IMG/VR virus record: IMGVR_UViG_3300045988_178965
Coordinates: 32,001-96,000 of that record
Source: a virus
Direction: 5' to 3' (one strand)
Length of the DNA stretch: 64,000 nt
Shown: piece after piece, positions 12,576 through 42,586 of the stretch
Numbering within the stretch: the first letter of the stretch is position 1
Layout: each line of letters starts with the position of its first letter
Translations under genes and position numbers: made by a program
The notes under the pieces: model-generated
What the model saw: only the letters and a program-made list of their open reading frames with translations
Databases searched by the model: none
What the model was told of the DNA's origin: nothing

Positions 12576-13489
12576 TGCAGTTAGATTTAAAACTGAAACA
12601 AGCCGCATTCTTCTTCGTCAACGGAATTTCTGTCAAAAAGGAATTTTCAACATTCAATGTTGACAATGGTGATACTGCAGCTTTAATTTCAATAGTCAGA
12701 GGGATTGAAGGCAAAAGGATTGAATCCTCAGTACCTGCCGCATCTATACGAGCAATTGTTACTCCATCTGGCGGAGGTGGAGGCGGAGGAAGTGGTAGTC
12801 CGGGTCCTCAGGGCCCTCAGGGGCCACAAGGCCCAATGGGTCCAGTAGGTCCAGTAGGACCGATGGGACCATCAGGTGCAACTGGTCAACCAGGCCCACA
12901 GGGACAACCTGGCCCGCAAGGACAGACAGGACCTAAAGGTGACACCGGACCAGCAGGGGCAAATGGACTACCTGGCCCTAAAGGCGAGCGTGGTGCAGAC
13001 GGTTTACCTGGTGCAAAAGGAGAGGCCGGAGAACGCGGAAAAGACGGCAAATCTGCTTATGAGATTGCTGTTGAGCATGGCTTTGTTGGAGATGAAGTGC
13101 AGTGGCTTGAAAGCCTAAAAGGACGTAACGGTGAACGCGGCCAAGATGGTCCGGCCGGCCCTAAAGGGGATAAAGGCGAGCCATTTAAATTCTCTGACTT
13201 TACTTCCGAACAGTTAGAGTCACTAAAAGGACCCAAAGGGGACACAGGTCCAGCCGGACCTCCAGGACCTAAAGGTGATGCCGGCACTGGTCAAAATGGA
13301 GCTACTCCAGACCTCTCTCTAAAGATTGCTAAATTCTACAATACTACCGATGATATGAACGCAGACTCTGCTATAGAAGAAGGAACATTCGTTGGAGTTT
13401 TGGACAGAGAGGGTAATCAGGAAAACTCTATTATATACAGAAAGGTTAACGGACTTATGGAAGAAATAGTTAACTTTTCAGAAATCTAA
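12575..13489 (+). CDS. collagen-like repeat tail fibre protein
   Basis: 304 aa. A Gly run is followed by about 35 uninterrupted G-X-Y triplets ([34 protein letters not shown]...). These are interrupted by the phage-fibre motif [26 protein letters not shown], after which further G-X-Y blocks follow. Confidence 0.8.
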
Positions 13490-13528
13490 GTCCGAACTAT
13501 CTAAACGTATATAAAGGTAATATATAAA

Positions 13529-23644: not shown

Positions 23645-23989
23645 TTATCGAACAATAGATCCTAAAATTTTAATAAGCATTGCTGCATCGCGCTTATGTT
23701 TATGAGCATCCAATTTTCGCTGATGTCTTTCTAAAACGGAGACATCATCCTCTTTATCGATAATGCTTGCCATAGTAATAGCGCCAATGAGCTTCAAGAA
23801 CTCTTCAAAGTCTTTTTGATCGCCATCCATATCCTCGCAATCAAACACTTTTGTTGGAACAACTTCTACAGGCTCGTCATCTTGGACTGCTCTTAAATAT
23901 CCAAGTCCGTTAACAGCTTTACTTCGTTCTGCGGCTTTATGAGCCGACATAATTTTGGCGATATCGCCAGGGGATACGTTTAAAATCAT
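23645..23989 (-). CDS. hypothetical protein
   Basis: 114-aa ORF whose start overlaps the nrdA stop by 1 nt. Confidence 0.5.
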   Translation of the reverse strand: MILNVSPGDIAKIMSAHKAAERSKAVNGLGYLRAVQDDEPVEVVPTKVFDCEDMDGDQKDFEEFLKLIGAITMASIIDKEDDVSVLERHQRKLDAHKHKRDAAMLIKILGSIVR

Positions 23990-26319
23990 TATAGTTTACA
24001 CGCTACACAATCGTCTTCATCGTCTGTGTTAGAATCATCCGGAATCTCAGTAATATTACCTTCCATAATATCAGAAGATTGACCATCATAGTTATTATTA
24101 TAATACATGGTTTTACCTCCTAATAGGTAATGCAGGTAAATATCCCAAGATACAACTGATGCGGGGACCTTGTTGTTAGGATAATTCTGTTTATTGTAAT
24201 ATGTATTAACAGAGATAGCCTGATCGGTATATCTCTGAATAACAGCATAAGTTTTAATTAATGCCTCATTTGAAGTATGATCCCAAATGCGGTCATATTT
24301 ATCTTTGAGTCGCGCCAATTCAGGCACTACAAATTTAGCTTGTCTATTCTTGCCGCCCTTAGAAATAATCAATTCTCGTATTGGTTCAATACCATTAGTA
24401 GTACCAGAACCGGAAATCTTAGCACTTGTTTCAGCAGGGAACATAGCAATCATAGATGCATTTCTAACACCATGTTTAGCAATTCTAGCACGGAGACTTG
24501 TCCAATCTAATTTCTCCTCATAATTAAATAAAGAGTTATACATAGGAGTAGTCATATCTTTTGGAAGTTTACCTTCCGCCCATAGCGTATCTTTGAATGC
24601 ATCACAGGCGCCACGTTCTTCAGCAAGATTAACTGAAGCACTAATAACTCCATAGGAGAAATGTTGCATCCATTCATCTAACAGTTCATAGCAATTGGAA
24701 TATTTTTTATCATTCTTAGCTAACCAATATGCAAGACCTGTAATACCAATGCCGATAGGTCTAAATAATCTGTTATGTTCCTCAGCAGCCGGGAAAGGAT
24801 GCTCTTGGAAATCTAGCAAATTATCAACAGCACGCATAGTTACATAAGCTACACGTTTCAAATCTTCGGGATTATCAAAAGCCCCAAAGTTAATACCACT
24901 CAAATTACATAAAGCAATCAATCCCTCTTGCTTGTATGTCTTACTTACAGGATCATAAGTTCGTGTAAGTCCTTGAGTTGGAAGAACAATTTCCTGGCAG
25001 AGGTTACTCTGCTTAATGGGATATTTGTCGGTATTATACATAGAATGGCGATTAATATTATCCGCAAACCCCACATATACTCGACCAGTACCAAATCTTT
25101 CTTCCACCAATAGGTCCATTAGGTGTCGTGCATTAATAGTGCCAACAGCCTCGCCTTTATTCATGGCTCTGGTGTAAGCATCATAAAAATGAGAATCAGA
25201 ACAGCTAGAATAAAAAGCATCATAAACCTCTTTAGAAATGTGTGGAGAGAACAAGCCAATATCTCTATTTTCTGCGGCGGCCTTAAGCATGAATCCGTTT
25301 AAAAATATAGAGTGATCAGAATGTTTCATTGATTCAGAATCCTTCTTCATATTGTTTTTATAAAGAAGTATTTCTTCAACATCTGGGTGCAGACCCCACC
25401 AGTTAAATGTTAGCGAGCCCTTCCGAATTGAGCCTTGACTGCATGACAATGCGCTATACTCAATAGATTTAGCGTGATAGAGAGCTCCACTATTTACAGC
25501 GGCACCATTTCTAATTGCCGCATTACGTTCTCTTAATTTAGATGAACCAATACCAAGGCCAGCTCCAAGTGTTGCATATTTACGGGCAGCAGTTGCTACC
25601 TCGCCAATAGAGTCGATAGAGTCATCAGATTCAATCAGAACACATGAACTAAAACTACGAGTAGGCTTTCTCAGATTTGCAATATGGGGAGTCGGTACAT
25701 TTACCCGTCCAAGAGACATATTGTCATAATGTTCTTTAACAAAACTTAGGCGATCAGTATAAGCATCGCCATCATCATTGATAAAATACATCATTGCTGC
25801 AACCATATACGAAATCTGTGGAGTTTCGTAATATTCTTTGGTTTTGGCATTCTTCGCTAAATATTTAGCCTCCCATTCGACAGCACCAGAGATAGAATAC
25901 ATCATATCTCTATTGTGATCGATTTGCTTATTCAGCCACTCTATTTCATCCTCAGAGTATTTTTCAAGAATAATCTTATCATACACTCCAAGTCTTGTAT
26001 TCTTCTTAATAACGGAAAGCAGATTCTTAGGCTCAAAATCGCCATAGACATATTTACGCATATTACAAAGAAGAATACGGCCAGCCACAATAGCATAATC
26101 AGGATGCTCTTCATCAATTAAATTATTAGCACTGGTTAACAATGCCCCATTAATTTCTTCAGTAGTTATCCCATCATAAAACATGATGTTGCTATTTACA
26201 GCAATTTCAGAAACAGAAACGTTATCCAACCCTGCACATACAAATCCCAGGAAAGAATTAATACGTTCAGGGTTGTAAGGAACAACATCACCATTTCTTT
26301 TGGTAACATTGAATCCCAT
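23989..26319 (-). CDS. nrdA: ribonucleotide reductase class Ia large subunit
   Basis: 776 aa. It has an N-terminal ATP-cone (VTKRNGDVVPYNPERI), an active-site region (CNLSGINF, PAETSAKISGSGTTNGIEP) and a C-terminal redox Cys pair (CVACKL). Confidence 0.95.
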   Translation of the reverse strand: MGFNVTKRNGDVVPYNPERINSFLGFVCAGLDNVSVSEIAVNSNIMFYDGITTEEINGALLTSANNLIDEEHPDYAIVAGRILLCNMRKYVYGDFEPKNLLSVIKKNTRLGVYDKIILEKYSEDEIEWLNKQIDHNRDMMYSISGAVEWEAKYLAKNAKTKEYYETPQISYMVAAMMYFINDDGDAYTDRLSFVKEHYDNMSLGRVNVPTPHIANLRKPTRSFSSCVLIESDDSIDSIGEVATAARKYATLGAGLGIGSSKLRERNAAIRNGAAVNSGALYHAKSIEYSALSCSQGSIRKGSLTFNWWGLHPDVEEILLYKNNMKKDSESMKHSDHSIFLNGFMLKAAAENRDIGLFSPHISKEVYDAFYSSCSDSHFYDAYTRAMNKGEAVGTINARHLMDLLVEERFGTGRVYVGFADNINRHSMYNTDKYPIKQSNLCQEIVLPTQGLTRTYDPVSKTYKQEGLIALCNLSGINFGAFDNPEDLKRVAYVTMRAVDNLLDFQEHPFPAAEEHNRLFRPIGIGITGLAYWLAKNDKKYSNCYELLDEWMQHFSYGVISASVNLAEERGACDAFKDTLWAEGKLPKDMTTPMYNSLFNYEEKLDWTSLRARIAKHGVRNASMIAMFPAETSAKISGSGTTNGIEPIRELIISKGGKNRQAKFVVPELARLKDKYDRIWDHTSNEALIKTYAVIQRYTDQAISVNTYYNKQNYPNNKVPASVVSWDIYLHYLLGGKTMYYNNNYDGQSSDIMEGNITEIPDDSNTDDEDDCVACKL

Positions 26320-26320
26320 A

Positions 26321-26635
26321 TTATTCGCCTTCTTGATTTAAATATTTAACCAATTCAATAACTTTGGCTCGAAGATCTTTGAACTCTACATGCTCATAAG
26401 AGCCTGTATCATCACGGTCAATAAAGATTTGAGGGACAGAGCGCGGCTCTGGCTTACCCATATCTTCAAACCGCTTCTTCATTTCATCCATTTCAGCTTT
26501 ACCGGCATCAACATAAGTTTTTTCAAAATAGAATCGCTTATGCTTATCAATATATTTAGTGCCGAGATTTTCTAAGATGGATGTAGCCTGTACACATTGT
26601 GGACAGCTAGATTTGGAATAAATCAAAATTTTCAT
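26321..26635 (-). CDS. glutaredoxin/NrdH-like redoxin
   Basis: 104 aa with a CPQC active site and a VPQIFI motif. It sits between nrdB and nrdA, and its start overlaps the nrdB stop (ATGA). Confidence 0.8.
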   Translation of the reverse strand: MKILIYSKSSCPQCVQATSILENLGTKYIDKHKRFYFEKTYVDAGKAEMDEMKKRFEDMGKPEPRSVPQIFIDRDDTGSYEHVEFKDLRAKVIELVKYLNQEGE

Positions 26636-27096
26636 TGACTTTTCTCCGTGCTATATTTGTTAAACGCGGATAGAATCTCTCCATAATTGGTTTGAGACTT
26701 ATCAATAATCCCACGTTCATAATCTGTCTTCTCTGCTTCTTGCGGAGCCACTTGCTCTTTTTCTTCACCATTCCAAGCTGTAACCCAAGGAATAGGATTC
26801 TTAGTAACAGATGGAATACCACATAGTTCTTCTAATGGCGGTAACCCATATTTCTTTAGTCTTGAGGTGGCCAAATAACACAAATACTCTTCAAGAATAG
26901 ACTGGTTAAATGCAAAGATTTCGCCTTCTTTGAAAAGATATTTACACCATTCAAGCTCTTCTGTTATAGCGTCACGCCATATTCCCTCCACTGCACGTTT
27001 AACCTCGTCTTCTTCAGAGACCATCAAAAAGTCAATATCGTCAACAGGTAAAATGCTTAGAAGATTATTTGTAATCGCCACATGAATGTTCTCATC
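26632..27096 (-). CDS. nrdB: ribonucleotide reductase small subunit, exon 2
   Basis: Reading upstream of the tracked ORF gives DENIHVAITNNLL, which completes the R2 motif ..IIKLINR|DENIH. The C-terminus NPIPWVTAWNGEEKEQVAPQEAE matches the E. coli NrdB tail. Confidence 0.85.
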   Translation of the reverse strand, partial: DENIHVAITNNLLSILPVDDIDFLMVSEEDEVKRAVEGIWRDAITEELEWCKYLFKEGEIFAFNQSILEEYLCYLATSRLKKYGLPPLEELCGIPSVTKNPIPWVTAWNGEEKEQVAPQEAEKTDYERGIIDKSQTNYGEILSAFNKYSTEKSQ

Positions 27097-27845
27097 CAGT
27101 AATGTTCAATAGGGTTCGCTACTTCCCTACCAGCTTATTAAGCTTCTGCATATCGCTATGCAGCTCAGACTATATCATTATCTCCGTATTGGAGATATCT
27201 GGCTTTTCGAGTGCCAATAGCTTGCACCCTACGCCTTTCGGCTAGTCGTTGCTCTACTTTTATTCGATTTAGGAAATTTGCCGTATTTTTCTGTAATATG
27301 GCTCCATCGTTTATGCCCTCTTATAAGAGAAACATATCTAGGATGTAAGGAATATAGCGACGCTATACTTTCGTTATCATATCCAGAAAGAAGTAATTCG
27401 CAAATCTTTTCAACATCAGGCTCAGTCAATTTTGACATAGCGTTTCTTGAGCCTAAATTTGTTTTAATACCGATTCGAAATGCATGCTTAAGATTTTCAG
27501 ATTTAGTAACTATTTCTAAATTAGACAAATCATTATTAGTCTTATTACCATCTATATGGTTAACCTCCATGCCAGGAGGTATATCGCCAATAAATGTTTT
27601 AACAACTAGTCTATGAACTAAACCAAGTTTAGAGCCCAGCATATAATACCCGGCCTTTGTCATACAATGTTTCATAAACTTGTTACTAATTTTTGAATAA
27701 ACACGCCCATCGGTGTAAACAATATATTTTCCTATATCTTTATATTTCATAGTTGTAAAAATAGATCAGGATTGTCTACTAGAGATGTCCCCTGAGTTAA
27801 CCAGATTTTCGACTAGGGTCGCCCCTAGAAGCCGCCATATTTTTA
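27097..27845 (-). mobile_element. group I intron in nrdB (749 nt) carrying an HNH endonuclease ORF
   Basis: The intron separates R|DE of the conserved ARDE(A/N)xH R2 motif. The 5' exon ends in U (CGT) and the intron ends in G (..AACATTACTG). Its core motif GGAGATAATGATATAGTCTGAGC plus a GCGA-looped hairpin are shared with four introns in dnaE. Confidence 0.75.
27229..27750 (-). CDS. intron-encoded HNH homing endonuclease
   Basis: 173 aa with an HNH motif (VNHIDGNKTNNDLSNLEIVTKSENLKH). It lies wholly inside the nrdB intron. Confidence 0.85.
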   Translation of the reverse strand: MKYKDIGKYIVYTDGRVYSKISNKFMKHCMTKAGYYMLGSKLGLVHRLVVKTFIGDIPPGMEVNHIDGNKTNNDLSNLEIVTKSENLKHAFRIGIKTNLGSRNAMSKLTEPDVEKICELLLSGYDNESIASLYSLHPRYVSLIRGHKRWSHITEKYGKFPKSNKSRATTSRKA

Positions 27846-29405
27846 ACGGTTAATGAGCTTGATAATACGTGCAAGTCCAGGTAATTTACCCATTTGTCCA
27901 AAAATAAAGCTACATGCAAAAGAAACCTGGAACCTGATAGACTCTAAAGCGTTAGCAGTATGCAATGCAAGCCATATAGCTCTTACAGCATCAATACGCT
28001 GGCATCTGCCCTCGTAATAATCTTGAACCTTTTGGATAGCATCATCATAGTATTTACAAATACTATCTTTACATTGAACAATTTCCTGAATATCCATAAC
28101 AGTGTCCAACGTCTCTTTCGGATTAACAAAAGATTGTTGGATGATATGAGTATAGGAGAAAGAATGTAAGCAATTACCGGTAACAGAAGGAATACCTTTA
28201 TAGCGAATAACAAATGCGCCGGTAGGAACAGTTAAACAATAGACTTTGCCTTCATATTGCTCATAGGTTTTCTCAACAAGGTCACCACGAACAGTATCTT
28301 CATCACTAACAAATAGAATATATCCACCTTCTTCTTCTTTAAATGTAGAATGAATTCCAGACATCAAAAGTAATGCTTGAATATCATCAATAATTTCTTT
28401 ACGCTCAACCCAAAGGTTATTTTCACCAGACTTCTCAACCATATTTTTAATTAAGCCAAGAAGCTGATAACCTTTAAGGTAAGTCATCGAAGAAAGAGGC
28501 AATACATCAGTAAGGCGATCACAATAGGCATCTTTAATTGCTCCGTCTAATTGAAATTCAATGCGGTCATCTAGTACAAAATTTGGTTGCGCCAGATTTG
28601 ATAACAGATGTGCGGCGTATTTGTTTCTTCCATAAAAATGAAGCTCATCAGGAATATTTTCATCTGTTTTAAGATGATATCCAAGAATGGTTGAATATAT
28701 TTTAGCCGCAGTTATTGCATCAAATTCGCCACTAAATTCTTCATCTTCAAAAGCAGTTCCAGTCAATGGTAAACTAATCAGTTCATGTGGTTCAAAATTA
28801 TCCGCTTCTTCAAAAGCAAAAGAATTCGAAGTAATGAATGGCATTCGATGAGCTTTGGTCACGAACTGTTCAAAATTGCCATCAACAGATTTAAAACGAA
28901 TAAGCTCTTCGTTCTTATCATAAATATGAATCTTTTCAGGGCGAGTCCAATACAAGCCTCTATTGGTAGAGCGATACTGCGCAACCATAGTTTCCACGGT
29001 TACATCTTTGATATCGAGCCATCCCTTATCAGTAAGAACTTCAGTCCCTTCAGCCAAACACTCAAATAGGGACCATGTTTGAATAACACATTCAAGACTT
29101 GGATCGGCAACAGCGGGATTAAATACCGCAGTAGGAGCACGGCCCATAATGGAATCCAATAAGATTTGACGCTTAATATTAGAAATAACAATATGCTCTT
29201 CAGCCTTTGTGAGTAGGGGGAAATTGGTCCTATCATTAGTCATATCAATTTCCTCTGGCCTCCAAATCTTTTCGAGCTGCATTGTAAATAGATCTAAGAT
29301 AACCTTATATCTAGGGTTGTCAAAGCGTTGGACCGTAGCTCCTTGGCTGCGGTCCAAAAATAACGTTTTAGGAAACAATTCGTTTCCAAATACTGTACCT
29401 GTCAT
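27846..29405 (-). CDS. nrdB: ribonucleotide reductase small subunit, exon 1 (contains an intein)
   Basis: The start is trimmed to MTGTVFGN (ATG at 29405, preceded by AAAGGA). The R2 iron-ligand motif is split as QTWSLFE-[intein]-CLHSFSYTHII. The exon ends ..ARIIKLINR. Confidence 0.9.
28173..29060 (-). mobile_element. intein (296 aa, probably with an endonuclease domain) in NrdB
   Basis: Begins CLAEGTEVLT, has block B VTKAHRM (TxxH) and ends SVTGN followed by Cys. Removing it restores E-x-x-H (FE|CLHS). The central part of about 150 aa is long enough for a LAGLIDADG-type domain. Confidence 0.85.
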
Positions 29406-29465
29406 ATTAATTATTCCTTTTGTAATTATTGTAATAGGAACATCTGAAATTGCATTTCGCAATTA

Positions 29466-30245
29466 AAGGACGGTTTGCAAAAACCGTTGCATCCTGCAGG
29501 CGCCGGCCGCGGGATGCATGAATTCACCTCATTCTTAAATTTGGAACAAATTTAAGAATTGATGTATCACGAACCTCGATTCGTATAGTAAAAACAATAT
29601 TGTCAAAGATCGGAAGGAATTCTTCCGCTTTGGGCCCGGCCTCACCTGGGGCCCAAAGGATCTGGATCAGGACGCAGTCCTGAAATTATTCTCTAGAATA
29701 ATTATCTAAATATTAATAGGCCTAAGCCCTTAAAGATAGAAGACCATAGAATCATCTTGACTTCGACAGAGTCTAGTCAACGAGCCACACGGCTTTAACA
29801 TGTTAGAATACCTTCTAACATGTTAAAATTAAATATACCATCAGCGTATATTTAATTTTATAGTCAAAGTATACTCATCCTAGGATGACAAAGACCGGAA
29901 GGTATGCTTCCGTAAATCCGGACAGGACCAGATCCTAGTCCTTCCGGACTCCGTCGGACCCTTCGGGACGACGGGCGCATTATTTTGGTAAAATAATGCA
30001 AGTTTATATTAATGGACCTCAATCCATTTCAAGGTCGGAAGGCATGCTTCCGCGAGGACGGGTGATCCCGGCCTTCGACGCAGCTCTGCAGCTCCGAATT
30101 ACCGCACGGAATTCGGACAGAGCTATTGGGTTTTTATAACAATCCTAAAATTGTATTGCCGACTCTTCCCTGGTCGGCCCGGGTGAAAGGAAAATCATCA
30201 TGCATTGTACTTAATTTAACTAAATCAAATACCTGGAGCTTAATC
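29466..30245. repeat. ORF-free GC-enriched array of about 20 inverted repeats/hairpins
   Basis: Perfect or near-perfect stems sit at 29470-29487 (GCAA loop), 29489-29517, 29531-29559 (12 bp), 29611-29627, 29628-29658 (10 bp), 29667-29683, 29684-29703, 29757-29780, 29794-29827 (15 bp) and 29825-29859 (14 bp). Further ones sit at 29875-29888, 29896-29912, 29918-29947, 29951-29974 (UUCG loop), 29977-29999 (10 bp), 30011-30028, 30036-30052, 30059-30070, 30082-30124 (nested) and 30158-30178. The motif cggaag-N5-cttccg occurs three times. Confidence 0.85.
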
Positions 30246-30270
30246 CAACGTCGCAATTATATTTTTATTT

Positions 30271-30759
30271 TTATGTGGCATTGCGATCAACCACACTTCT
30301 TTGTTTTTGTTCTCTATAACGCTTTGCCCTAATCTCCCTAGCTTTCTCTAAAACTGGATTTTCAGGATTCTTCATTATAGAGTTAAAATCATATTCGATG
30401 TCAGGATAAGGAACTGAATCTATAATAGCCTTTAATTCTTCCTTACTCTTAGGGCATTCTGATTGGAGTATTCTAACAAGTTTGATGCCAGATTCTTCGG
30501 CCAGCAAATCCTTTTTCTTGTCCTTGAACTGCTGCCATCTAAAACCATTGGCATCTTTGTGAAAGTGTTCAATAAATTCAACATGCTGCCGGCCATCCAA
30601 TTCTATAACTATTCCCATTTCTTTCACAAAACAGTCATATCTCGTCCCATCTGGAAGACAAGCTTCATATATAACATTGCATGTAGGATAAAGCTGACAT
30701 AGATATTCATAGATAATACGCTGCTCATTTGAGCCCCTATTATCGAACCCCATAACCAA
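30271..30759 (-). CDS. PD-(D/E)XK / DUF559-like endonuclease (possible free-standing homing endonuclease)
   Basis: 162 aa. The motif YDCFVKEMGIVIELDGRQH matches the D..(E/V)xDGxxH signature of Vsr/DUF559-type nucleases. Confidence 0.5.
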   Translation of the reverse strand: MVMGFDNRGSNEQRIIYEYLCQLYPTCNVIYEACLPDGTRYDCFVKEMGIVIELDGRQHVEFIEHFHKDANGFRWQQFKDKKKDLLAEESGIKLVRILQSECPKSKEELKAIIDSVPYPDIEYDFNSIMKNPENPVLEKAREIRAKRYREQKQRSVVDRNAT

Positions 30760-31377: not shown

Positions 31378-32277
31378 TTAGAAATTATCAGGTATCATTT
31401 TTTGTATTCCACAATAACTGTGGTTTAAACAAGCAGAACATTTCCCTGGGTTTCCGCCAGAAGTAGAATCAGAATTTATGAATTTAATAGCAATTTCTTT
31501 TAAATGACCATCTGAAAAATTGGGCCTTTTGGTTACACTAACATTTGAATTAGGAGTCCATCCAAATGGAACTCTGATATCGTGTATTGTTTTAATAGTA
31601 ATACCAATATCCTCTATATGTTTAACAACAGCCATTGTTCTTGGGTTATTATAAGCATACATAGGATTGTTCCTATTATCCTGATGGAAAGGCGTTAATA
31701 GAAATATTTCAATACCATCATCCATCAGTAATACGAGATCGATTACAGTATGAAATGTTTTTCTTGGTTTTCTACCATAAGACCAAAATATAAGTTCGTC
31801 GTTTATAGCGCCGTTGGAATGATAAACCCTATCCGATATTTTGTCTAAAATTTCAGTAAGAAATCTGCGCAAAGATGCTTTATATGACTCTACACCTTCA
31901 TCTTCATTGGGAAGTATCTTTTTGATTTTACGTTCAAAATAAAGAATAGGTGCATTACTAGGTCCGTTCAAATCAGACATATAGATTTTAATGGCTTCAT
32001 ACAAAACCAATGATGCTCTTTCTCTTGCACTAAGATTTTCATCTTCAGATGATAATCCATCAAAACAAACTATTTGATTTAGATTAAGATAAACAGTATC
32101 AGGAGCATTAATTTTATATTTGCACTGAGTATACAGTTTAAACATATTTGCATTAAGCTCCATATACGGAGCATCTGACCTAGTTCTTTTGTCATGAGGA
32201 GGTATTTCTACCTCCTCCTTTAGAATTAGCTCTTCTATTTCATTATTAAACATTTTGATTGGCACCATTTTGAGCAA
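31378..32277 (-). CDS. hypothetical protein with C-terminal CxxCx5C cluster
   Basis: 299 aa ending ..GKCSACLNHSYCG. It overlaps the end of the primase-helicase gene. A nuclease or Fe-S fold is possible but the catalytic motifs are unclear. Confidence 0.45.
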   Translation of the reverse strand: MLKMVPIKMFNNEIEELILKEEVEIPPHDKRTRSDAPYMELNANMFKLYTQCKYKINAPDTVYLNLNQIVCFDGLSSEDENLSARERASLVLYEAIKIYMSDLNGPSNAPILYFERKIKKILPNEDEGVESYKASLRRFLTEILDKISDRVYHSNGAINDELIFWSYGRKPRKTFHTVIDLVLLMDDGIEIFLLTPFHQDNRNNPMYAYNNPRTMAVVKHIEDIGITIKTIHDIRVPFGWTPNSNVSVTKRPNFSDGHLKEIAIKFINSDSTSGGNPGKCSACLNHSYCGIQKMIPDNF

Positions 32278-34768
32278 TGGCAGTATTTTGCAAAATTAAT
32301 GCCTCAAATTCACGAGGAGTCATCTCTTCAAAATATGCTTTTTCAGGCCAAAATCTAGTTGGAATATCACCCTTAAAGGATGCAACTTTATTTTTACCAA
32401 TGCTCCAAATTACAAGAGGTTTCTTGCGATGGGCTTCATCTTCACTATAATCAATATGATAGGCTACAGCCTTTTCACGCAAGCCATGAAGTTCATTCCA
32501 GCCGTGCATAATAAGATTACTGTCATACACAAGGCTATTAGACTCTGCGATATTGTTATTATGAGGACGAACTTCTGGTGGCATTTTTGTGTATTCCACC
32601 GTAGAAACAACAGTTAAGCCAAACTCTACAGAATATGCCTTCAATTCGTGAGAAATGTGTTGGAATTTTTCTCGACCAGATTTCTCCGTCGGAACCTGAA
32701 TCAAATGGAAGTTATCTATAAAGAAATAAATATGTCTACCAGGATACTTATCCCGATAGTTCGACATCAATGTTCTAATAAAAGATAGTGAGCGACCATC
32801 GACGCTATCATAAATAATAAATCTGTCTTCTCTGGCATAACTTAAGAATTTGCGGAAAAATATTTCACGCTCTTCTAAAATCATAGGATATTCTCTGCTA
32901 TCTTTATAAAGTTCGGGTTTAGCGAACTTGTTAATATTGATAGCATCAAAAATATCTATATTGCCATTGTCCTTTGCTCTTTTTGCCGCATCATAAGAAA
33001 TAAATCTCGGCAACAGTTCTTTTGCACTATCATCAATAGAAAGGAAAATTACCATTGCATGTGGATTATTCTCTACAATACGCCAAGACAAATTAACCTG
33101 CCATGAAGTCTTACCGGAATTAGAGGAACCGCCGATAAAGATAACCTTTTCTTGAATATCGCCATCAGTAGTTGCAGATAGGATTGGCATATCACCACCC
33201 CAATCTGTATATTTACCGCTAGACGGATCTTCCTGATATTCCTTAATTCCCAAAATATTATTAACACGGGCAGAAGTATCCATAATGTCAGTGTTATTCA
33301 TTTGGTTAATCTGTCCTATATTAGACAGTGCTTCATTGAGTAAAAGTTCAGATCCACTTCCTGAGTCATTACTCAAATCTTTAATAAGCTTCTCGACAAT
33401 TGCTCTTTTAGAATCTTCGCTTCTACGAGTTTTTTCTCTCTCAGATTTATTAACTTCATCGCGGATAACTCTATCACTATAACCAGTAAATATAGACAAT
33501 TCCGAAATCATCTTTTCTCTTCTAATAGAGCTAGGCTCACTGGTTATAATTGGAACCATTTTTTCGCAAATATCTGCAGGGTCTATATCTTCATCTTCAA
33601 ATAAAGACAATCTCCAAGAGAATGACGAAATTTTTGGAATCTCTTTAAATTTTTCAATCCCATATTTACGAACAAATTCATCTGGATCTATTTTAACCCT
33701 AACCCCATCTACATATTCATCAGGTAAAAATACAAATGAAAATTTGATGTCATGGGTTTTTGCGACAACCTTATCTAGCATATCCACGGCCTTTTGTCTG
33801 CCAGCCGCATCATTATCTAAACAGATAGTAACATTGTACAATCCATTGCGTCGCAAAGTGTTTAAATGTGCTTCAGAAAAATCTAAACCACAAATTCCAA
33901 CTGCATTGGTCATTCCATGATTATGTAGACTTAATGCATCGGAATTTCCTTCTACAATGAAAATAGAGTCCGTTGACTTTTTTGCCTTATCCAGCAAATA
34001 CAGTCGCTCGTTTTTCTTGTAGATATTTTTCTTAACACCATTCTTAGTTCCAATAAATTTTGGGCCATTTATAAGTTTGCCCTCATCATTAAGAACTCCA
34101 TCATAATTCAAATTGCGAGCTTGAAATCCGACAGGTCTTCCAAACTCATCACAAATGGTATAAATAAAATTGGAAGGATTAAACAGCATCGGATTGCATA
34201 AATCTATTTCATCAATAAATGTATTTTTAAATCCGAGATTGTTTAAATATTTTCTTAGATCCGCATTATCATTACATACTCCAATTCTATATTTTTTCAT
34301 GAATTCTTGACTGAATCCACGCTTCTCCATTTCTCCCAATTGTTTATCATTAAAATTAGTTTGAGATGTAATATAGTTTGAAGCAGCCTCATAGGCCTGA
34401 TACATATTAAGCTCGTATATTTCATCTTCGGATAATTTTCTATATACAAGCTCAATTCCATATTTGTCAGCGAGATATGCAACAGTATTATCAACAAACC
34501 CTGGCCCAGACATTGGCTTATCTTCTAATACATGTGCTGCATTAAAAATGTCCATAGTTGAACCACAGCTCATACATTTGACAAGAGGATAACCTTGTTC
34601 TGCCATAAACATAGACATAGATGGATGATGGTCATCATGATCAGGATTTAGACAACAAATTTTCTTACCATTTTCAACATTGAGGCCATGCTCATGCAGA
34701 TATGCAGGTAAGAACATCCGAATGCTATCAAGCTGACTTTCAAAGTCACTTATTTTTCTGTAAGACAT
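32246..34768 (-). CDS. bifunctional DNA primase-helicase (T7 gp4-like: zinc finger + TOPRIM + DnaB-family helicase)
   Basis: 840 aa. It has a Zn-binding motif (CCLNPDHDDHHPSMS..CMSCG), a TOPRIM motif (IFIVEGNSDALSLH..CLDNDAAG) and a Walker A (GGSSNSGKTSW) with a DnaB-like C-terminal half. Confidence 0.85.
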   Translation of the reverse strand: MSYRKISDFESQLDSIRMFLPAYLHEHGLNVENGKKICCLNPDHDDHHPSMSMFMAEQGYPLVKCMSCGSTMDIFNAAHVLEDKPMSGPGFVDNTVAYLADKYGIELVYRKLSEDEIYELNMYQAYEAASNYITSQTNFNDKQLGEMEKRGFSQEFMKKYRIGVCNDNADLRKYLNNLGFKNTFIDEIDLCNPMLFNPSNFIYTICDEFGRPVGFQARNLNYDGVLNDEGKLINGPKFIGTKNGVKKNIYKKNERLYLLDKAKKSTDSIFIVEGNSDALSLHNHGMTNAVGICGLDFSEAHLNTLRRNGLYNVTICLDNDAAGRQKAVDMLDKVVAKTHDIKFSFVFLPDEYVDGVRVKIDPDEFVRKYGIEKFKEIPKISSFSWRLSLFEDEDIDPADICEKMVPIITSEPSSIRREKMISELSIFTGYSDRVIRDEVNKSEREKTRRSEDSKRAIVEKLIKDLSNDSGSGSELLLNEALSNIGQINQMNNTDIMDTSARVNNILGIKEYQEDPSSGKYTDWGGDMPILSATTDGDIQEKVIFIGGSSNSGKTSWQVNLSWRIVENNPHAMVIFLSIDDSAKELLPRFISYDAAKRAKDNGNIDIFDAININKFAKPELYKDSREYPMILEEREIFFRKFLSYAREDRFIIYDSVDGRSLSFIRTLMSNYRDKYPGRHIYFFIDNFHLIQVPTEKSGREKFQHISHELKAYSVEFGLTVVSTVEYTKMPPEVRPHNNNIAESNSLVYDSNLIMHGWNELHGLREKAVAYHIDYSEDEAHRKKPLVIWSIGKNKVASFKGDIPTRFWPEKAYFEEMTPREFEALILQNTAIAQNGANQNV

Positions 34769-36919: not shown

Positions 36920-38329
36920 TTATCTTGTAGAGATTGTAACATCTCTAAGTCCATTAAAATCACGAACCACATCAATATCTGCGGTTTTAATATAAAATGG
37001 ACCAAACCGTATAGTTGTTTTATTGATCTTAACACCTGGACTAACCTCTGGTTCGAAATTAGCCATAGTGATAAATACTTTCGTATTATTGTCACCTTCA
37101 GACTTATTATCTCTAATTTTATTTAGGATAGTTCTAAATCTAATAGGAGATGGAATCCCAGTTAAATTGATAGTAATTTCATCAAAAGTGGATGAAGCCT
37201 CTTCATTTGAATTAGAAGTATCTACGGTTAAATCCAAAACAGAATTAATTACGCAATCAATACCAGTTCCCCTATAGCTAGGTTTTGCACTTATAAAACA
37301 TTGCAAATACTTGCCGGCGGCAAATAGCTCTTTATTTGGTTCATAAACATTCGAGAATGCAGTTAAAGCATAATCTCTACCGTATATATCTTTAGCCTCA
37401 ATAAACGCCATAGGCTTACCGGTTTTAGTTGTAATAACTCTAACTTTTGATACCTGACAAACAGTTGCCCCATAATAAACACCAGTTTTAGCAACTTCAT
37501 TTTCAATAAAGGCAGAATCATGATGAGGATCTTTAATATCTCTTGTAATAACATCCATAGGATTGCCAGAAATATACACTCCAATCAGTTCTTTTTCTGC
37601 TTCCAAAATTTCAAGAAGAGTAAATTCCTTGAATAATGGATCGACGAAATACGTATGTTCAATTTTACAGAATTCTTTTATTCTCTCTTCTGCCTCAGGC
37701 GTTAGAGCCTTCGCGGCCCTACATTCTTTTTTAAGAGCGCCCTTAGGGTCAAAGTCAAGAATAAATTTAGAATATGAGCGAATAAGAACGCTTCGTTTAT
37801 ATCCAAAAGAATCAACGGCGCCGGAAAGAATTAAACTATCACAAACCTTCTTATTGATATTAGTAGTCAAAAGGTAAGTTCTAAGAAGAAAATCTCCAAA
37901 ACTACTATAAGGTCTAAGTTCAATTAATTTACTAACAGCACCATCACCAATACCACGAATACCAGATAAACCATAAATGATATCATTATTACGGTTAAGG
38001 CCAAATGTACCAACAGATTCATTCAGGTCCGGCGGCAAGATATTGATACCCTTAGATACAGCATCCTCCATATAAGTTTTCTTCATTGGAGGATCAGTTT
38101 CACAAGTAATAATAGAACAATAAAACTCTTCCGGATAATTGGCTTTAAGCCATGCAGTATAATAAGTCAAATGACCATAGGAGTAGGCATGACTCGCATT
38201 GAATGCATACCTCGCAAATTCTAGAAGCTCTTCCCAGAACTGCGCTACTTCTTGTTTATCTTCACCATTGGCCACTGCACCATTGATAAAGTCTTCTCTG
38301 AGCGATGCTAGTTTGGCTGCATCTTTTTT
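36920..38329 (-). CDS. dnaE: DNA polymerase III alpha-type (DnaE) C-part, exon 5
   Basis: Begins KKDAAKLASLREDFINGAV and contains ARYAFNASHAYSYGHLTYYTAWLKANYPEEF, which matches the DnaE finger motif GFNKSHAAAY..AYLKAHYPAEF. An OB-fold-sized tail follows. Confidence 0.85.
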   Translation of the reverse strand, partial: KKDAAKLASLREDFINGAVANGEDKQEVAQFWEELLEFARYAFNASHAYSYGHLTYYTAWLKANYPEEFYCSIITCETDPPMKKTYMEDAVSKGINILPPDLNESVGTFGLNRNNDIIYGLSGIRGIGDGAVSKLIELRPYSSFGDFLLRTYLLTTNINKKVCDSLILSGAVDSFGYKRSVLIRSYSKFILDFDPKGALKKECRAAKALTPEAEERIKEFCKIEHTYFVDPLFKEFTLLEILEAEKELIGVYISGNPMDVITRDIKDPHHDSAFIENEVAKTGVYYGATVCQVSKVRVITTKTGKPMAFIEAKDIYGRDYALTAFSNVYEPNKELFAAGKYLQCFISAKPSYRGTGIDCVINSVLDLTVDTSNSNEEASSTFDEITINLTGIPSPIRFRTILNKIRDNKSEGDNNTKVFITMANFEPEVSPGVKINKTTIRFGPFYIKTADIDVVRDFNGLRDVTISTR

Positions 38330-39345
38330 CAATTATGTTAACCTATCGGTTTTTTATCCGATAGTTCTTATGCTTCATATTTGCATAAGTTCGGCGTACA
38401 TTTTCATCCCATTAGGATGTCGAACACTCTTGGAGATATTATATCTTTTCAATCTCTACGCTCTACGGTGGTTTACAGTTCCTGCAAACTTACCTCGGTA
38501 TTAGCATCTCAGCCTTCACCGATTTTGCTCGATACACATTGTCTTATTACTAAAACAAGGGGCAGATTCAAATTTTATCTTTTTTCTTTTTAAATACACA
38601 TTAGCATTAGAATACATATAGTCGTATAGCATTTTAGAGGGAAGTATCCCACCAAAATGAATGGAACAGAAATTTCCTCTATCGATAATTTTATACTCTC
38701 TTAGAGTTGCACCATTATTAAACAATATAGAATTCAAAACTGGTATAAAATTTTTTGAACCGGTAAAGCTTATTTTGGTCGTATTACCAGATAGGTAAAC
38801 AGAACCATCACCGTCAAAATAGCCTCTTATAAAATGAGGCAAAAGATTGGGATTGATTTCTGGAAATTCATAATCCAAACTTTTATTTCTTTTTATACCT
38901 TTAGATTCCAAAATATTTATAAAAACTTCATCAGAAAATGAAATTTTTGAAGTAGGATTTCTTCCTTCGCGGTGATACGTTTTAACCAAATTATAATCAC
39001 CAGAAATAAGAAAAGATAAGCGATTTAAAATATCTATATCGGATGAAAGAAGCTCTATCGAGAAAGTTCTCTTACCATTACTAAGATATGATATACTACC
39101 GTCTGCACCTATTAATCCTAAGAAGTAGGCTTTCTCTTCAGTATCTATATTATTGAAGAAATCGGAATTTATATTAAATCTACACCTACTTCGGCTGACC
39201 TTTATCCCATTTGATTTTAAAAATCTTGTAATTTTGTAAGGGCTTTCGCCGGTAATAGATGATATCTGCGCTATACTATTATGGTTATTATAAAGGGTAA
39301 TAAAATCTTGCATTGTGTTAATAAAAAAATAAAAGATAAAAATCT
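38330..39345 (-). mobile_element. group I intron D in dnaE (1016 nt) with LAGLIDADG ORF
   Basis: Splicing GCT GTA GGT|AAA AAA GAT restores ADVLRKAVG|KKD (DnaE LRRAMGKK). U is at -1 and the intron ends ..AACATAATTG. It shares the core GGGATGAAAATGTACGCCGAA plus a hairpin. Confidence 0.75.
38516..39313 (-). CDS. intron-encoded LAGLIDADG homing endonuclease
   Basis: 265 aa with two dodecapeptide motifs (YFLGLIGADGSIS and FIRGYFDGDGSVY) and an N-terminal HTH-like segment. Confidence 0.85.
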   Translation of the reverse strand: MQDFITLYNNHNSIAQISSITGESPYKITRFLKSNGIKVSRSRCRFNINSDFFNNIDTEEKAYFLGLIGADGSISYLSNGKRTFSIELLSSDIDILNRLSFLISGDYNLVKTYHREGRNPTSKISFSDEVFINILESKGIKRNKSLDYEFPEINPNLLPHFIRGYFDGDGSVYLSGNTTKISFTGSKNFIPVLNSILFNNGATLREYKIIDRGNFCSIHFGGILPSKMLYDYMYSNANVYLKRKKIKFESAPCFSNKTMCIEQNR

Positions 39346-40632: not shown

Positions 40633-40884
40633 CAGAAATACAATACAACGGTATCTGATATTTCTATCAGGATCGGACTATCTCATCACCATATCAAATG
40701 ACTTAGGTGTCGGGCGCTGTATCTGGTTATTAAGAGTACTCTAGCTCTCCAGTAGTCTCTGCACCTTCTTATGGTGTACCATAAGCTTGGCTCAGGATTG
40801 CCTTATCTTAAATTAAGACTTAGGTTTCCCTGAATTCACCCAATTTTAACCTAACTGTTTCCAATTAGGGCCCCAGACCGCTTT
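40633..40884 (-). mobile_element. ORF-less group I intron B in dnaE (252 nt)
   Basis: Separates STYRP|GPLNIP (DnaE ALYRPGP). U is at -1 (CCT) and the terminal base is G. The core CACCTAAGTC..ATATGGTGATGAGATAGTCCGATC plus the hairpin ctgata-GAAA-tatcag are nearly identical to intron A. Confidence 0.75.
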
Positions 40885-42072
40885 AGGGCGATACGTACTA
40901 ACAATTACTGCAATATCATGAATAGTTTTAGGCTTACAGGCATTAACGAATCCAGACATACCAGCCTCTTCAAATTGAAAGATACCATAGTTTCTCTCAT
41001 TCCAAAGAACCTTATACGCCGCCTCATTATCCATTGGTAAATTATACCAATCGATATCAATGCCATGACGCTTCTTAATAAGCTCTCTAGCAAAGTTAAG
41101 AACTGTAAGCGTCTTAAGTCCTAAAACATCTAGCTTAACAACATTTGACGTATCTTCAATTTTATTACCTTCCCATTGAATAACGGGGGCGCCTTTACTA
41201 TCCCACAATGGAACATCTTCCCATAGTGGGCGATCAGATAATGCAACTCCACAGTTATGAACGACTACACCATTAGCAATGTAAGAAGAATCATCTAGTA
41301 CAGTGAAGTTATATACATCAATATCGCCATCAAGGTTAGCATCCGTCCATTTGGAAACGTCATTAACTCTGCGAGCATACAATACATCGTCATTGTCGTT
41401 AACTCCAATCATGCCATTCCCGATATTAACATTACCTGCATCCACCCAAACGATATTGCCGTTAAAGCTTCCTTCGGATTTAAATTCTTCTGAATTTATA
41501 AGTGCAATAGGATGGTTCGAAGTACATTCAATATAGCCGAAGTTATCATATTGAGAACATTGATACGAGATATGTAGAATATCTTTTCTCTTAGCTTTAT
41601 TAACTTGGACTTCAACTATTGGTTTCCATCTCAACTTATGGGTTAATGCGAGGTAACCAGGCTTAACATCTTCAATGTTAATTAGCTCTGACTGAGAGTT
41701 TTCATCTTTTTTGATGTAAACTTTTGTGCCAGCTAACAGGCATGCATGAATGCCCTGGGCGCTCAAACAATCGCTAAGCTTAATTGCATCATTCCAAACC
41801 TCTTTCACCTCAGCGTCAGAATTATACAGGGCTTTGATTTCATCACTCTCTTCAAGTAATACATCGAGTGGAGGGCACCCGATATCAGGCATTAAGCTAG
41901 ATATCTTATTAGCCTTATCAAAACCCATACCATGAATACGTGCAGCGTCTTTAAAGGCCTTCTTGCCGCCGGTATATGTCAGGGTGCCTAAATGGGCAAA
42001 CCCTTCGCCATACTTCTCTCTCAACATTTCGAACACTTCAGGACGACGTTCTTTCTCTACATCGGAATCAAT
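40885..42072 (-). CDS. dnaE: dnaE C-part, exon 2 (contains an intein)
   Basis: Begins IDSDVEKERRPEVFEMLREKYG, which is the second half of the catalytic PDIDxDF motif. It contains QGIHA-[intein]-CGVAL (DnaE HAAGVVI), VKLDVLGLKTLT and GIFQFEE (DnaE GVFQLES). Confidence 0.85.
41254..41742 (-). mobile_element. mini-intein (163 aa) in DnaE C-part
   Basis: Starts CLLAGTKVYI, has block B CTSNHPI (TxxH) and ends GVVVHN followed by Cys. Excision restores GIHA|CGVAL. Confidence 0.85.
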
Positions 42073-42325
42073 CGTTTATGTTCAGTATAGGTCGTTAATC
42101 TATACCCGGTACGAAACCAGCTCTATGTCGCCATAGAGACCAGACTATCTCATCACCATGTCCATAAGGATTTAGGTGCTCTGCGCTTCGAACCACTTGG
42201 CCCTACATAATAGTCGTTACACGTCTTTCGCTTTCGCAAATTTTCGCACGGTATTGTCTTCTAGAGAGTTCCACCGTTTTCACAGAGTTTTCTATTGTCA
42301 ATTTCTTGACAAAGGGACTAATTTA
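42073..42325 (-). mobile_element. ORF-less group I intron A in dnaE (253 nt)
   Basis: Separates GGFPD|IDSDV, inside the catalytic Asp motif. U is at -1 (GAT) and the intron ends ..AACATAAACG. It has the core CACCTAAATC..ACATGGTGATGAGATAGTCTGGTC plus the hairpin ctctatg-GCGA-catagag. Confidence 0.75.
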
Positions 42326-42586
42326 ATCCGGGAAACCGCCGCCGACAGTATGCACTTTACCGTCTGGCGGGGTTGCTACGATTCCGAGCAAATAGGCAAT
42401 AGAGGAGTTAGCTTCATTCTCTTCAATATTTTTTACACCAGCATTATACAGATTCAAATAATAGGAATCTATATGATGCAATTCGCAGTGGTTCAATTCG
42501 AACATAATATTTGCTTTATGCTCTTTGAACCAATCCGTATTAGAATGAGAAAGAACTAACTCTCTTAGCGTTTTATGTTCAGCCAT
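42326..42586 (-). CDS. dnaE: dnaE C-part, exon 1 (own start codon)
   Basis: The ATG at 42586 is preceded by AAGGAG and overlaps the upstream stop (AATGGCTGA). It ends ..NSSIAYLLGIVATPPDGKVHTVGGGFPD, the first half of the PDIDxDF motif. Confidence 0.75.

Follow-up and report, generated by a model that had tools for sequence, protein, structure and literature searches.

The window analysed here, a 64,000-nt stretch of viral DNA (positions 32,001 to 96,000 of IMG/VR record IMGVR_UViG_3300045988_178965), carries a hairpin-dense spacer at 29406-30296, between a Vsr-like endonuclease gene and nrdB. Our results show that this element is real and old, that it has been selected for base pairing and folds in the minus sense, and that it is modular and confined to this locus, which makes it a well-supported candidate for a new, clade-restricted structured RNA. 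All coordinates are window positions, and related contigs are named by labels from L001 to L095. The flanking genes all lie on the minus strand, in a run that comprises nrdA, a glutaredoxin-like gene, the pieces of nrdB, the spacer, the endonuclease-like gene, two small genes, a 299-aa gene and a primase-helicase gene, the following having been delimited:

23989-26319, minus strand: nrdA.
30271-30759, minus strand: endonuclease-like gene, 162 aa.
32246-34768, minus strand: primase-helicase gene.

The sequence-only reading of this DNA had placed a gene-free array of hairpins at 29466-30245. The gap is real, but its limits had to be moved. On the minus strand, nrdB in fact begins with the ATG at 29405 (MTGTVFG..., kept in all relatives) and not with the TTG at 29462, so that the non-coding stretch is longer than first stated; at the other end, conserved structure that does not encode protein reaches the last ~25 nt of the endonuclease open reading frame (ORF), to about 30296, where nucleotides are conserved across clades while the stop codon and the reading frame differ. 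On these two grounds the element is taken to span about 29406-30296. Its GC content of 0.45-0.53, against about 0.32-0.40 in the flanks, bears out the GC enrichment that had been claimed, and the lack of a credible ORF holds as well: the longest has 52 aa, no reading frame of the spacer is conserved across the relatives, and small ORFs were rejected given that any stretch of conserved nucleotides yields matches in every frame of either strand. An 808-nt interval folds at -279 kcal/mol on the plus strand and at -294 kcal/mol on the minus strand, as compared with -202 and -214 kcal/mol for dinucleotide shuffles (z = -10.4 and -9.9, respectively). The repeats listed from the letters were all recovered, with perfect arms of 15 nt (29794-29808/29813-29827 and 29824-29838/29846-29860), 13 nt (29531-29543/29547-29559) and 10 nt (29977-29986/29990-29999 and 29628-29637/29649-29658), together with the palindrome TCATCCTAGGATGA at 29875-29888 and the recurrent CGGAAG-N5-CTTCCG, found at 29611, 29896 and 30036 where 0.06 copies are expected by chance.

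A search with the endonuclease protein led to five IMG/VR contigs of ~180 kb that have the same gene order and, at the same place, an ORF-free gap of 520-816 nt. With a 27-nt hairpin of the spacer as probe, further copies were found in IMG/VR and in ENA/JGI metagenomes, and Logan assemblies also carry the spacer. Altogether, 15 distinct full-length versions (618-907 nt as extracted) fall into five clades, between which the spacers are 48-70% identical and the third-codon identity of the flanking genes to the window is 0.45-0.71 (differences at 29-55%). The suspicion of an assembly or cloning artefact, which had been tied to absence from independent assemblies, is therefore excluded, since the clades are well separated and the spacer is present in at least 15 distinct assemblies. 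To judge from these contigs, examples of which are IMGVR_UViG_3300045988_171681, ERZ773046 NODE-4 and ODIP01000002, the lineage is one of uncultured human-gut phages of ~170-185 kb with no close relative among sequenced isolates. In this regard, megablast and blastn searches of the INPHARED phages gave no match to the region, searches of the same phages with the primase and NrdA returned only distant proteins (26% and 41% identical, respectively), and no close cellular relative of NrdA was found.

Alignment of the syntenic regions, which had been suggested as a check, shows that hairpins hold their positions and their pairing while the stem sequences change between clades. The 15-bp stem at 29794-29827, for instance, has its counterparts in CATTTTAAAG/CTTTAAAATG in L001, GCATTTTAGC/GCTAAAATG(T) in L003, where the last pair is G.U, and AAAATTTTCC/GGAAAATTTT in L004. 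Because each clade has its own near-perfect stem, the perfection of the stems has been kept by compensatory change and is not a mark of youth, which goes against the earlier argument that it points to a DNA-level or recently formed element.

The length of the spacer varies from 0 to 900 nt across clades. Among more distant relatives, whose spacers are shorter, the gene order is kept in the L082 clade, with a spacer of 383 nt (fold z = -6.0), in the L089 clade, with one of 206 nt (fold z = -7.4) that retains a CUUAGG-loop hairpin and a GCUUUGG-loop hairpin, and in L095, where the spacer is absent. A core of ~200 nt (29716-29914) is by contrast steady, with a length of 198-202 nt and the same helix order in four clades. 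L040 is 99% identical to L004 and yet is without one module of ~116 nt, and L002 is 83% identical to the window and yet is without about 290 nt (two modules plus core). The number of modules thus shifts by clean deletions, which is expected of beads on a string and not of one globular fold. L047 is listed with L002 as a natural module deletion relative to the window, and these natural deletions (L040, L002 and L047) show that the array tolerates the loss of units and amount to deletion mutants supplied by nature. One part hardly changes at all: a 27-nt hairpin, CCCGGGCCGACCAGGG-N-AGAGTCGGCAA, is identical in all five clades save for its 1-2-nt N and is unique in each genome, and a search of 185,579 bacterial and archaeal species, each represented by one genome, did not find this motif.

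The repeated unit consists, in the minus sense, of a GC-rich hairpin (hpA), a single-stranded linker of ~7 nt with the form RYCUU(U)N, and a second hairpin (hpB) with a YYNAGG hexaloop. hpA has a 5-8-bp stem, mostly CGGAAG/CUUCCG, under a pentaloop NWUKC; its other stems are CGAAAG/CUUUCG, CCGGGAA/UUCCCGG, UGGGAGUA/UAUUCCCA, UUGGAUA/UAUCCAA and CGGAC/GUCCG. The hpB stem, of 4-6 bp, takes at least 10 forms under one conserved loop, among them UGGA/UCCA, CGAA/UUCG, UCAU/AUGA, UGAG/CUCA, UUGC/GCAG and CAAU/AUUG, and is usually followed directly 3' by UUAAUAU. Downstream of the module come an AT-rich hairpin of 10-15 bp, often GCGCCC, and then a GC-rich hairpin block that varies between clades. 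The hpB loops keep AGG in all 23 distinct copies (a set chosen by the loop pattern YYNRGG), with GAGG, AAGG and UAGG as common versions; CUU is present in every linker, frequently within CCUUU or UCUUU, and loop and linker occur 1:1. The window has four modules that are canonical or nearly so, besides one terminal variant and one further hpB, with ~20 local helices overall, and the modules are irregularly spaced, 115-170 nt apart.

A covariance model built on the module matches 30002-30054, 29864-29914, 29584-29629 and 29706-29759, all on the minus strand, and nothing else significant in the 64 kb; it gives 3-5 matches in each relative, the copies of clade 5 being diverged, and the module count across relatives is 3-6. 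Outside the spacer the hpB motif occurs at chance level within the window. The search of the rest of the DNA for the recurrent hairpin, which had also been suggested, thus finds the module at this locus only, within 64 kb. In other IMG/VR contigs, strings of the type CGGAAG-N5-CTTCCG-RYCTT score at most 23.5 bits by the covariance model, against 29-64 for real modules, and appear to be chance occurrences of a bare hpA where the module is missing. A genome-wide promoter or terminator motif was rejected, as the module is locus-specific. Tandem Repeats Finder gives only a 9-nt unit in 2.8 copies and a 6-nt unit in 2.5 copies, unlike a type III toxin-antitoxin locus or a CRISPR array.

The locus specificity bears directly on the earlier suggestion of debris from mobile hairpin elements, that is, GC-rich mobile hairpins of the mitochondrial GC cluster, REP/BIME or MITE type lodged in a tolerant spacer. 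The gain and loss of GC-rich blocks (30053-30132 is shared only with the L002 clade, and L017 has a ~190-nt insertion) and the wide range of spacer lengths would fit such an origin, and the likeness extends to the clustering of GC-rich palindromes in an extragenic spacer. However, the element is undispersed, with neither a second copy of the module nor of any GC-rich hairpin in 64 kb, its units are co-oriented, the order and length of the core are fixed in four clades, the loops and the 27-nt motif are strongly constrained, and no transposase-like gene was identified beside the spacer. Dispersed elements of this kind were accordingly rejected as a class, given that the module model and the hpB motif match only this locus within the 64 kb. 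Locus specificity together with the fixed core thus makes neutral debris very improbable.

The pairing within the module was evaluated over 18 distinct copies and 12 pairs. Standard pairs are formed by 88.4% of the cells, a share that drops to 27-51% once the partners are shifted by 1-3 columns; double changes occur in 10 of the 12 pairs (36 cells), and none of 500 shuffles matched the observed covariation score. In the minus sense the module stems comprise 171 Watson-Crick pairs, 14 G.U and 0 A.C pairs, and pairs 4-5 of hpB, in 23 distinct loop-anchored hairpins, show 7 G.U and 0 A.C. The core gives the same picture: in the minus sense RNAalifold returns 50 pairs at -36.1 kcal/mol, with 21 compensatory pairs and a long irregular helix rich in G.U, as compared with -18.65 kcal/mol and 25 pairs in the plus sense. 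Applied automatically to the 5' block, RNAalifold recovered only two helices owing to misalignment, and loop-anchored counting was used there in its place. A crude count of wobbles over all predicted hairpins speaks against this strand preference, being unbiased (25 G.T and 28 A.C), but is given less weight because many of the counted pairs are chance extensions of real stems.

A bias of wobbles and of the consensus fold to one strand is not predicted by a double-stranded DNA site. RNA is therefore favoured, the more so as the minus strand is the coding strand of the neighbouring genes, and the comparative evidence makes a functional minus-sense RNA structure highly probable; a DNA hairpin acting on one strand is the sole formal alternative. 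The GCAA and C(UUCG)G tetraloops pointed out earlier are present, but only on the plus strand, which is not the one favoured by the comparison, and in hairpins that are not conserved.

The same evidence weighs on the possibility of a DNA-level element, be it a replication origin, a cluster of protein-binding palindromes or cruciforms within the replication gene module. Such an element would sit suitably among the primase-helicase, nuclease, PolIII-alpha and ribonucleotide reductase (RNR) genes; perfect AT-rich palindromes are interspersed with GC-rich blocks, the density of six-base palindromes is 2.4 times that of the window as a whole, and the unique invariant 27-mer could be an initiator site and is compatible with a protein-binding site. 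However, protein-binding sites and iterons keep their sequence, whereas the stems here covary as the sequence drifts, and wobble pairs and the long G.U-rich helix are confined to one strand. There are no direct-repeat iterons, only two pairs of direct repeats of 12-14 nt and trivial tandems, and the cumulative GC skew runs straight through the locus, its only turn being at ~20 kb, at the switch in gene orientation. The covariation, the bias to one strand and the lack of any feature in the skew thus count against both DNA-level proposals of the sequence-only reading, a replication or packaging origin and a palindrome cluster, and leave a DNA-level function very improbable.

Read 5' to 3' in the minus sense, with loops in parentheses, the element is made up of the following parts:

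30251-30295, minus strand: 5' end, with helices TGTGG/CCACA (30291-30295 with 30274-30278) and TCGCAAT/ATTGCGA (30280-30286 with 30251-30257) joined by an A-rich loop.
30234-30247, minus strand: hairpin TGGA(TTAAGC)TCCA, its loop kept in clades 1-4.
30156-30200, minus strand: UUUUCCUUU, which resembles an anti-Shine-Dalgarno sequence, then the invariant hairpin CCCGGGCCGACCAGGG-N-AGAGUCGGCAA (30156-30183).
30139-30154, minus strand: hpB0, ACAAT(TTTAGG)ATTGT, the first hairpin with a YYNAGG hexaloop.
30053-30132, minus strand: GC-rich multi-hairpin insert, only in the window and the L002 clade (alignment columns 241-360).
30002-30054, minus strand: module 1, with hpA CGGAAG(CATGC)CTTCCG (30036-30052) and linker ACCTTGA (30029-30035); 64.3 bits by the covariance model.
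30011-30028, minus strand: hpB of module 1, AATGGA(TTGAGG)TCCATT, followed by TTAATAT.
29977-29999, minus strand: AT-rich 10-bp hairpin GCATTATTTT/AAAATAATGC, followed by GCCC.
29913-29976, minus strand: GC-rich variable hairpin domain, different between clades.
29864-29914, minus strand: module 2, with hpA CGGAAG(CATAC)CTTCCG (29896-29912) and linker GTCTTTG; 47.9 bits.
29875-29888, minus strand: hpB of module 2, TCAT(CCTAGG)ATGA; the module starts the conserved core.
29824-29860, minus strand: core hairpin H1, with conserved loop GCUGAUG and closing pairs UAC/GUA.
29794-29827, minus strand: core hairpin H2, with a 15-bp stem; the stems of H1 and H2 covary.
Within 29716-29793, minus strand: long irregular core helix GCCGUGUGGCUCG...GAUGAUUCUAUGGUC, G.U-rich, enclosing a hairpin; minus sense only.
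Within 29716-29793, minus strand: module 3, with linker UAUCUUUAA and hpB GGG(CTTAGG)CCT (29718-29729); 15.7 bits at 29706-29759.
29684-29703, minus strand: hairpin AATTATTCT/AGAATAATT.
29667-29683, minus strand: hairpin TCAGGAC/GTCCTGA.
29628-29658, minus strand: hairpin CTTTGGGCCC/GGGCCCAAAG.
29568-29629, minus strand: module 4, with hpA CGGAAG(AATTC)CTTCCG (29611-29627) and a linker beginning ATCTTTGACAATATTGT; 29.9 bits, E 5e-5, a copy outside the training set.
29568-29585, minus strand: hpB of module 4, TACGAA(TCGAGG)TTCGTG.
29531-29559, minus strand: 13-bp AT hairpin, with a G-C to A-U change of the stem in L001.
29488-29518, minus strand: GC hairpin TGCATCC...GGATGCA.
29450-29487, minus strand: terminal module, ACGGTTT(TTGC)AAACCGT (29470-29487), CCTTTAA (29463-29469) and TTGC(GAAAT)GCAA (29450-29462).
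29403-29449, minus strand: nrdB translation start region, with the ribosome-binding sequence in AAAGGAA, 9 nt before the ATG at 29405.

The helices of the 5' end overlap the endonuclease stop codon (30271-30273) and are interleaved, possibly forming an H-type pseudoknot. Their pairing is maintained by a C-G to U-A change on both sides in 6 of 13 sequences and by U-A to U.G in L003, and a G-C to G.U change is seen in the first helix. The stem at 30234-30247 reads GAGG/CCTC in the L004 clade, with three of its four pairs changed on both sides; that of hpB0 is ACAGC/GTTGT, ACGAT/GTCGT or CGAA/TTCG in relatives, and the outer stem of the 30053-30132 insert, CAGCTCTG/CAGAGCTG, becomes CAGCTCA/TGAGCTG in L002. 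The AT hairpin followed by GCGCCC recurs in all clades with altered stems, the H1 loop persists as GCUKWKG even in the 206-nt spacer of L089, and the terminal module, flagged as terminator-like, has the same grammar with different stems in every clade.

Regarding the role of this RNA, we see about an even chance that it would be a cis-acting structured leader of nrdB. On this explanation the minus-strand transcript, shared with the surrounding replication and nucleotide-metabolism genes, would contain the spacer as a long untranslated leader or intercistronic region of nrdB, and the array would be a multivalent platform displaying elements that resemble Shine-Dalgarno (SD) and anti-SD sequences. 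The displayed elements would pair mutually or bind a partner, which could be the 30S subunit or an RNA-binding protein dedicated to the task, and this would set the translation and stability of the RNR message, while the dense structure would shield 0.9 kb of untranslated RNA from nucleases and Rho. We infer from sequence the transcription, the action in cis on nrdB and the SD/anti-SD system as partner, and this specific mechanism, control of translation or stability through SD-like and anti-SD-like elements, is put forward tentatively, as possible but somewhat unlikely. Of 55 genes, 23 are preceded by AAGG, for the most part within AAAGGA or TAAGG, as the ribosome-binding site of this phage; the AGG of the hpB loop resembles this SD (AAGG/AAAGG), and the linker CCUUU/UCUUU is its complement. 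Next to nrdB, an upstream UUCCU or CCCUU could pair with the nrdB SD. The UUCCU, within AGAUGUUCCUAYUA, is kept in clades 1-4, and clade 5 has instead a hairpin CCCUUAUU(GUU)AAUAAAGG over the SD, so that two distinct arrangements with the potential to close the SD by pairing are maintained. For the 206-nt spacer of L089, the fold of minimum energy joins the 5' end to the nrdB SD.

Several observations count against a leader of nrdB that works in this manner. All known copies share one genomic context, and a conserved gene order may be all that places the element beside nrdB. A leader of 0.5-0.9 kb with 3-6 modules far exceeds the needs of known translational operators, and the change in module number between close relatives fits a dosage-type decoy equally. 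Loop position 3 admits bases other than purines, and the loop begins with two conserved pyrimidines, neither of which a simple SD mimic would need. Finally, pairing of the linker CUU with the loop AGG inside one module is sterically unlikely because there are 0 nt between the loop AGG and the 3' arm.

The main rival of the nrdB leader is a processed decoy acting in trans, which we consider rather unlikely. The spacer would then yield a stable phage non-coding RNA (ncRNA), processed from the operon or made from its own promoter, that serves as a multivalent decoy or scaffold in the style of CsrB/RsmZ, each YYNAGG hairpin, with or without its linker, binding one protein copy or 30S subunit. The resemblance to CsrB/RsmZ lies in the many short hairpins that share one purine-rich, conserved loop motif above freely varying stems, and in the variable copy number, since 3-6 modules between relatives is typical of titrating arrays; stable GC-rich helices inside an AT-rich genome, the terminator-like terminal hairpin before nrdB, and an invariant 27-nt hairpin that could serve as a processing or assembly site agree with it as well. 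However, promoter-like sites number 9 against 7.5 expected, none of them well placed, and terminator-like sites 3 against 1.6 expected, with U-poor tails; two of the latter are module hairpins with the tails GUCUUUGUCA and CCUUUAAUUG, and in the module tail RYC is kept ahead of UUU, a feature that goes beyond what a plain U-tract demands. The element loop is YYNAGG and not A(N)GGA: loops end in AGG and the CsrA signature GGA arises only when the closing base is A, in 5 of 23 hairpins, on which ground membership of the Csr/Rsm titrating small RNAs was rejected. In addition, the element hairpins are coupled to a GC hairpin and a CUUU linker and stand inside an operon, just ahead of a gene, they have no known binding partner, and the short 206-nt version of L089 has a single such hairpin.

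The linkers also bring to mind an array of nut-like antitermination sites, in which the linker would be boxA, bound by NusB-S10, and the hexaloop hairpin boxB, bound by an N-like phage protein, so that polymerase reads through the spacer and the intron-, intein- and terminator-laden nrd genes downstream. The boxA-boxB order of lambda is seen here too, with the single-stranded G-R-Y-C-U-U-U-R-A placed ahead of a hairpin whose loop is conserved and whose stem covaries, and as in the lambda nut and rrn leader boxB-boxA-boxC arrangements a CUCUUU-like single strand is flanked by hairpins in an untranslated RNA that must escape termination. An operon RNA of this length that is not translated would also need to be guarded against Rho. 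The gamma-proteobacterial boxA consensus is GYTCTTTAANA (PMC5725501), and pyrimidines are critical at boxA positions 5-6, as is the G that is G2 of the 12-nt rrn boxA numbering (PMC3177189). The pyrimidines of positions 5-6 are kept in every linker, and GAUCUUUGACA (29601-29611) lies one mismatch from the relaxed pattern GYTCTTTRANA and two (positions 2 and 8) from GYTCTTTAANA, a consensus that may not be that of the host. However, only one of five window linkers comes within one mismatch, linker position 2 is a purine and not a pyrimidine, and the critical G (G2) is taken up by the last pair of hpA. A row of five nut sites would have no precedent, the hexaloop is not a GNRA-like pentaloop, and no N-like gene was identified. 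The grammar makes the analogy appealing, but in the boxA pattern it does not rise above chance, with 34 GYTCTTTRANA matches in the window against 30 expected, and we regard antitermination of this type as improbable.

A bolder proposal, which seems to us a long shot, is a new class of phage RNA: an expandable array of 0.2-0.9 kb that would mimic both partners of translation initiation or, equally novel, an RNA-protein unit with the Vsr-like nuclease. If the former were true, SD-like AGG hexaloops and CCUUU linkers similar to the 3' tail of 16S rRNA would capture 30S subunits, mRNA start sites or another host factor, and host translation would be reprogrammed or deoxynucleoside triphosphate (dNTP) synthesis coupled to ribosome availability. 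If the latter were true, the RNA would act with the adjacent 162-aa nuclease, whose 3' end the spacer overlaps.

The suggestion of a large structured phage ncRNA of the GOLLD or ROOL type fares well in kind, and not as to these families. Like GOLLD, ROOL and OLE, the element is a non-coding, GC-rich and helix-dense stretch of several hundred nt in an AT-rich phage genome, with many covarying helices and a function not deducible from context. It differs in that it matches no Rfam model, has no adjacent tRNA genes, is known from one phage lineage only and is a variable string of modules (206-900 nt), theirs being one fixed multi-domain fold. Rfam 15 gave no match in 29300-30400 at gathering thresholds, and at E<=10 the top scores reached 15-20 bits where the cut-offs demand 51-80 bits; nor was there a match at E<=0.1 in the corresponding spacers of L004, L017 and L082. 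Over the whole window, gathering thresholds returned only group I introns, elsewhere than in the spacer, and no tRNA or tmRNA was found in the window.

The processing and stabilising hairpins between the cistrons of phage early operons, such as the RNase III sites of T7, are irregular and occur singly, with ~60 nt at each junction. They share with the element the presence of structured RNA between co-transcribed phage genes, which could set mRNA stability or translation, and differ from it in that ~20 helices with repeated sequence-specific loops stand here at one junction and at no other junction of the window. Further resemblances that were considered (to signal recognition particle RNA, anticodon loops, geminivirus or phiX origins, integron attC sites and NrdR boxes) were dropped as short or non-conserved, and no description of such an element was found in the literature.

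ncRNAs with many covarying helices above ~500 nt are rare in bacteria and phages, and OLE, GOLLD, ROOL and HEARO each opened a line of research. The unusual trait of the present candidate is that its modules are repeated and countable and that its loops and linkers mirror the ribosome-binding signals of the phage. If RNR is regulated by it, this would be a new type of control over the dNTP supply of a phage; if ribosomes or a host factor are titrated, a new takeover strategy. Even as a mere stabilising spacer, it offers a clean comparative dataset for work on RNA structure and function, in which five clades can be compared over at least 20 helices and module deletions have arisen in nature.

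The protein encoded beside the spacer is, as far as its sequence tells, a small Vsr-like nuclease confined to this phage group: it is labelled 'HNH/homing endonuclease' by PHROGs and 'very-short-patch-repair endonuclease' by JGI, Pfam, NCBIfam and PDB sequence searches with it were empty, and there was no exact-protein record. Several hundred member sequences are represented by the endonuclease clusters P0001-P0016. At the 3' end of its gene, L017 (4461-4650) and also L024 and L049 carry a GC-rich, hairpin-rich insertion of ~190 nt, flanked by duplicated CGAGA..AAAACAAAA, which replaces the C-terminus of the endonuclease, matches no Rfam family and is perhaps a small mobile insertion.

On the plus strand of the spacer, at 30186-30202, a ribosome-binding site and ATG (AAAGGAAAATCATCATG) are conserved in five clades, and the reading frames behind this start are all unrelated and short, with 3 to about 21 codons (MHCT* in the window). 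The signal probably just reflects, in mirror image, the UCCUUU motif of the minus sense, and may alternatively be a start-stop mini-ORF on an antisense transcript. The density of six-base palindromes in 29466-30245 goes along with classical restriction sites for PstI, NaeI, SacII, NsiI, EcoRI (three), ApaI, XbaI, StuI, AvrII, SphI and SmaI. This density is a by-product of the hairpins, and the polylinker look is contradicted by the many independent assemblies.

The nrdB gene is itself fragmented (26632-29405, minus strand). Its N-terminal part, 27843-29405, has an intein-like insert (CLAEGTEV...VTGNC) and is split from the C-terminal part, 26632-27081, by an HNH endonuclease ORF at 27229-27750, which is probably intron-borne, since a group I intron lies just below threshold at 27146-27337 (44 bits, E 1e-9). 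In L089 nrdB is intact, with 397 aa, and in L004 it has an intron above threshold. Group I introns above the Rfam threshold are found in the window at 40654-40894 and 42121-42335, on the minus strand (103 and 66 bits, respectively), in a PolIII-alpha (DnaE)-like region with PHP domain and DNA_pol3_alpha ORFs at 47957-49753 and an HHH_6 ORF at 36920-38332. A 509-aa reverse transcriptase gene (Pfam RVT_1), weakly similar to group II intron, retron and Drt2 enzymes, lies at 55441-56970 on the minus strand. Two adjacent structural genes on the plus strand, at 12575-14845, contain collagen-like Gly-X-Y repeats, and coding repeats of this kind are the only GC-rich patches outside the spacer in a scan of the window for GC-rich 40-mers.

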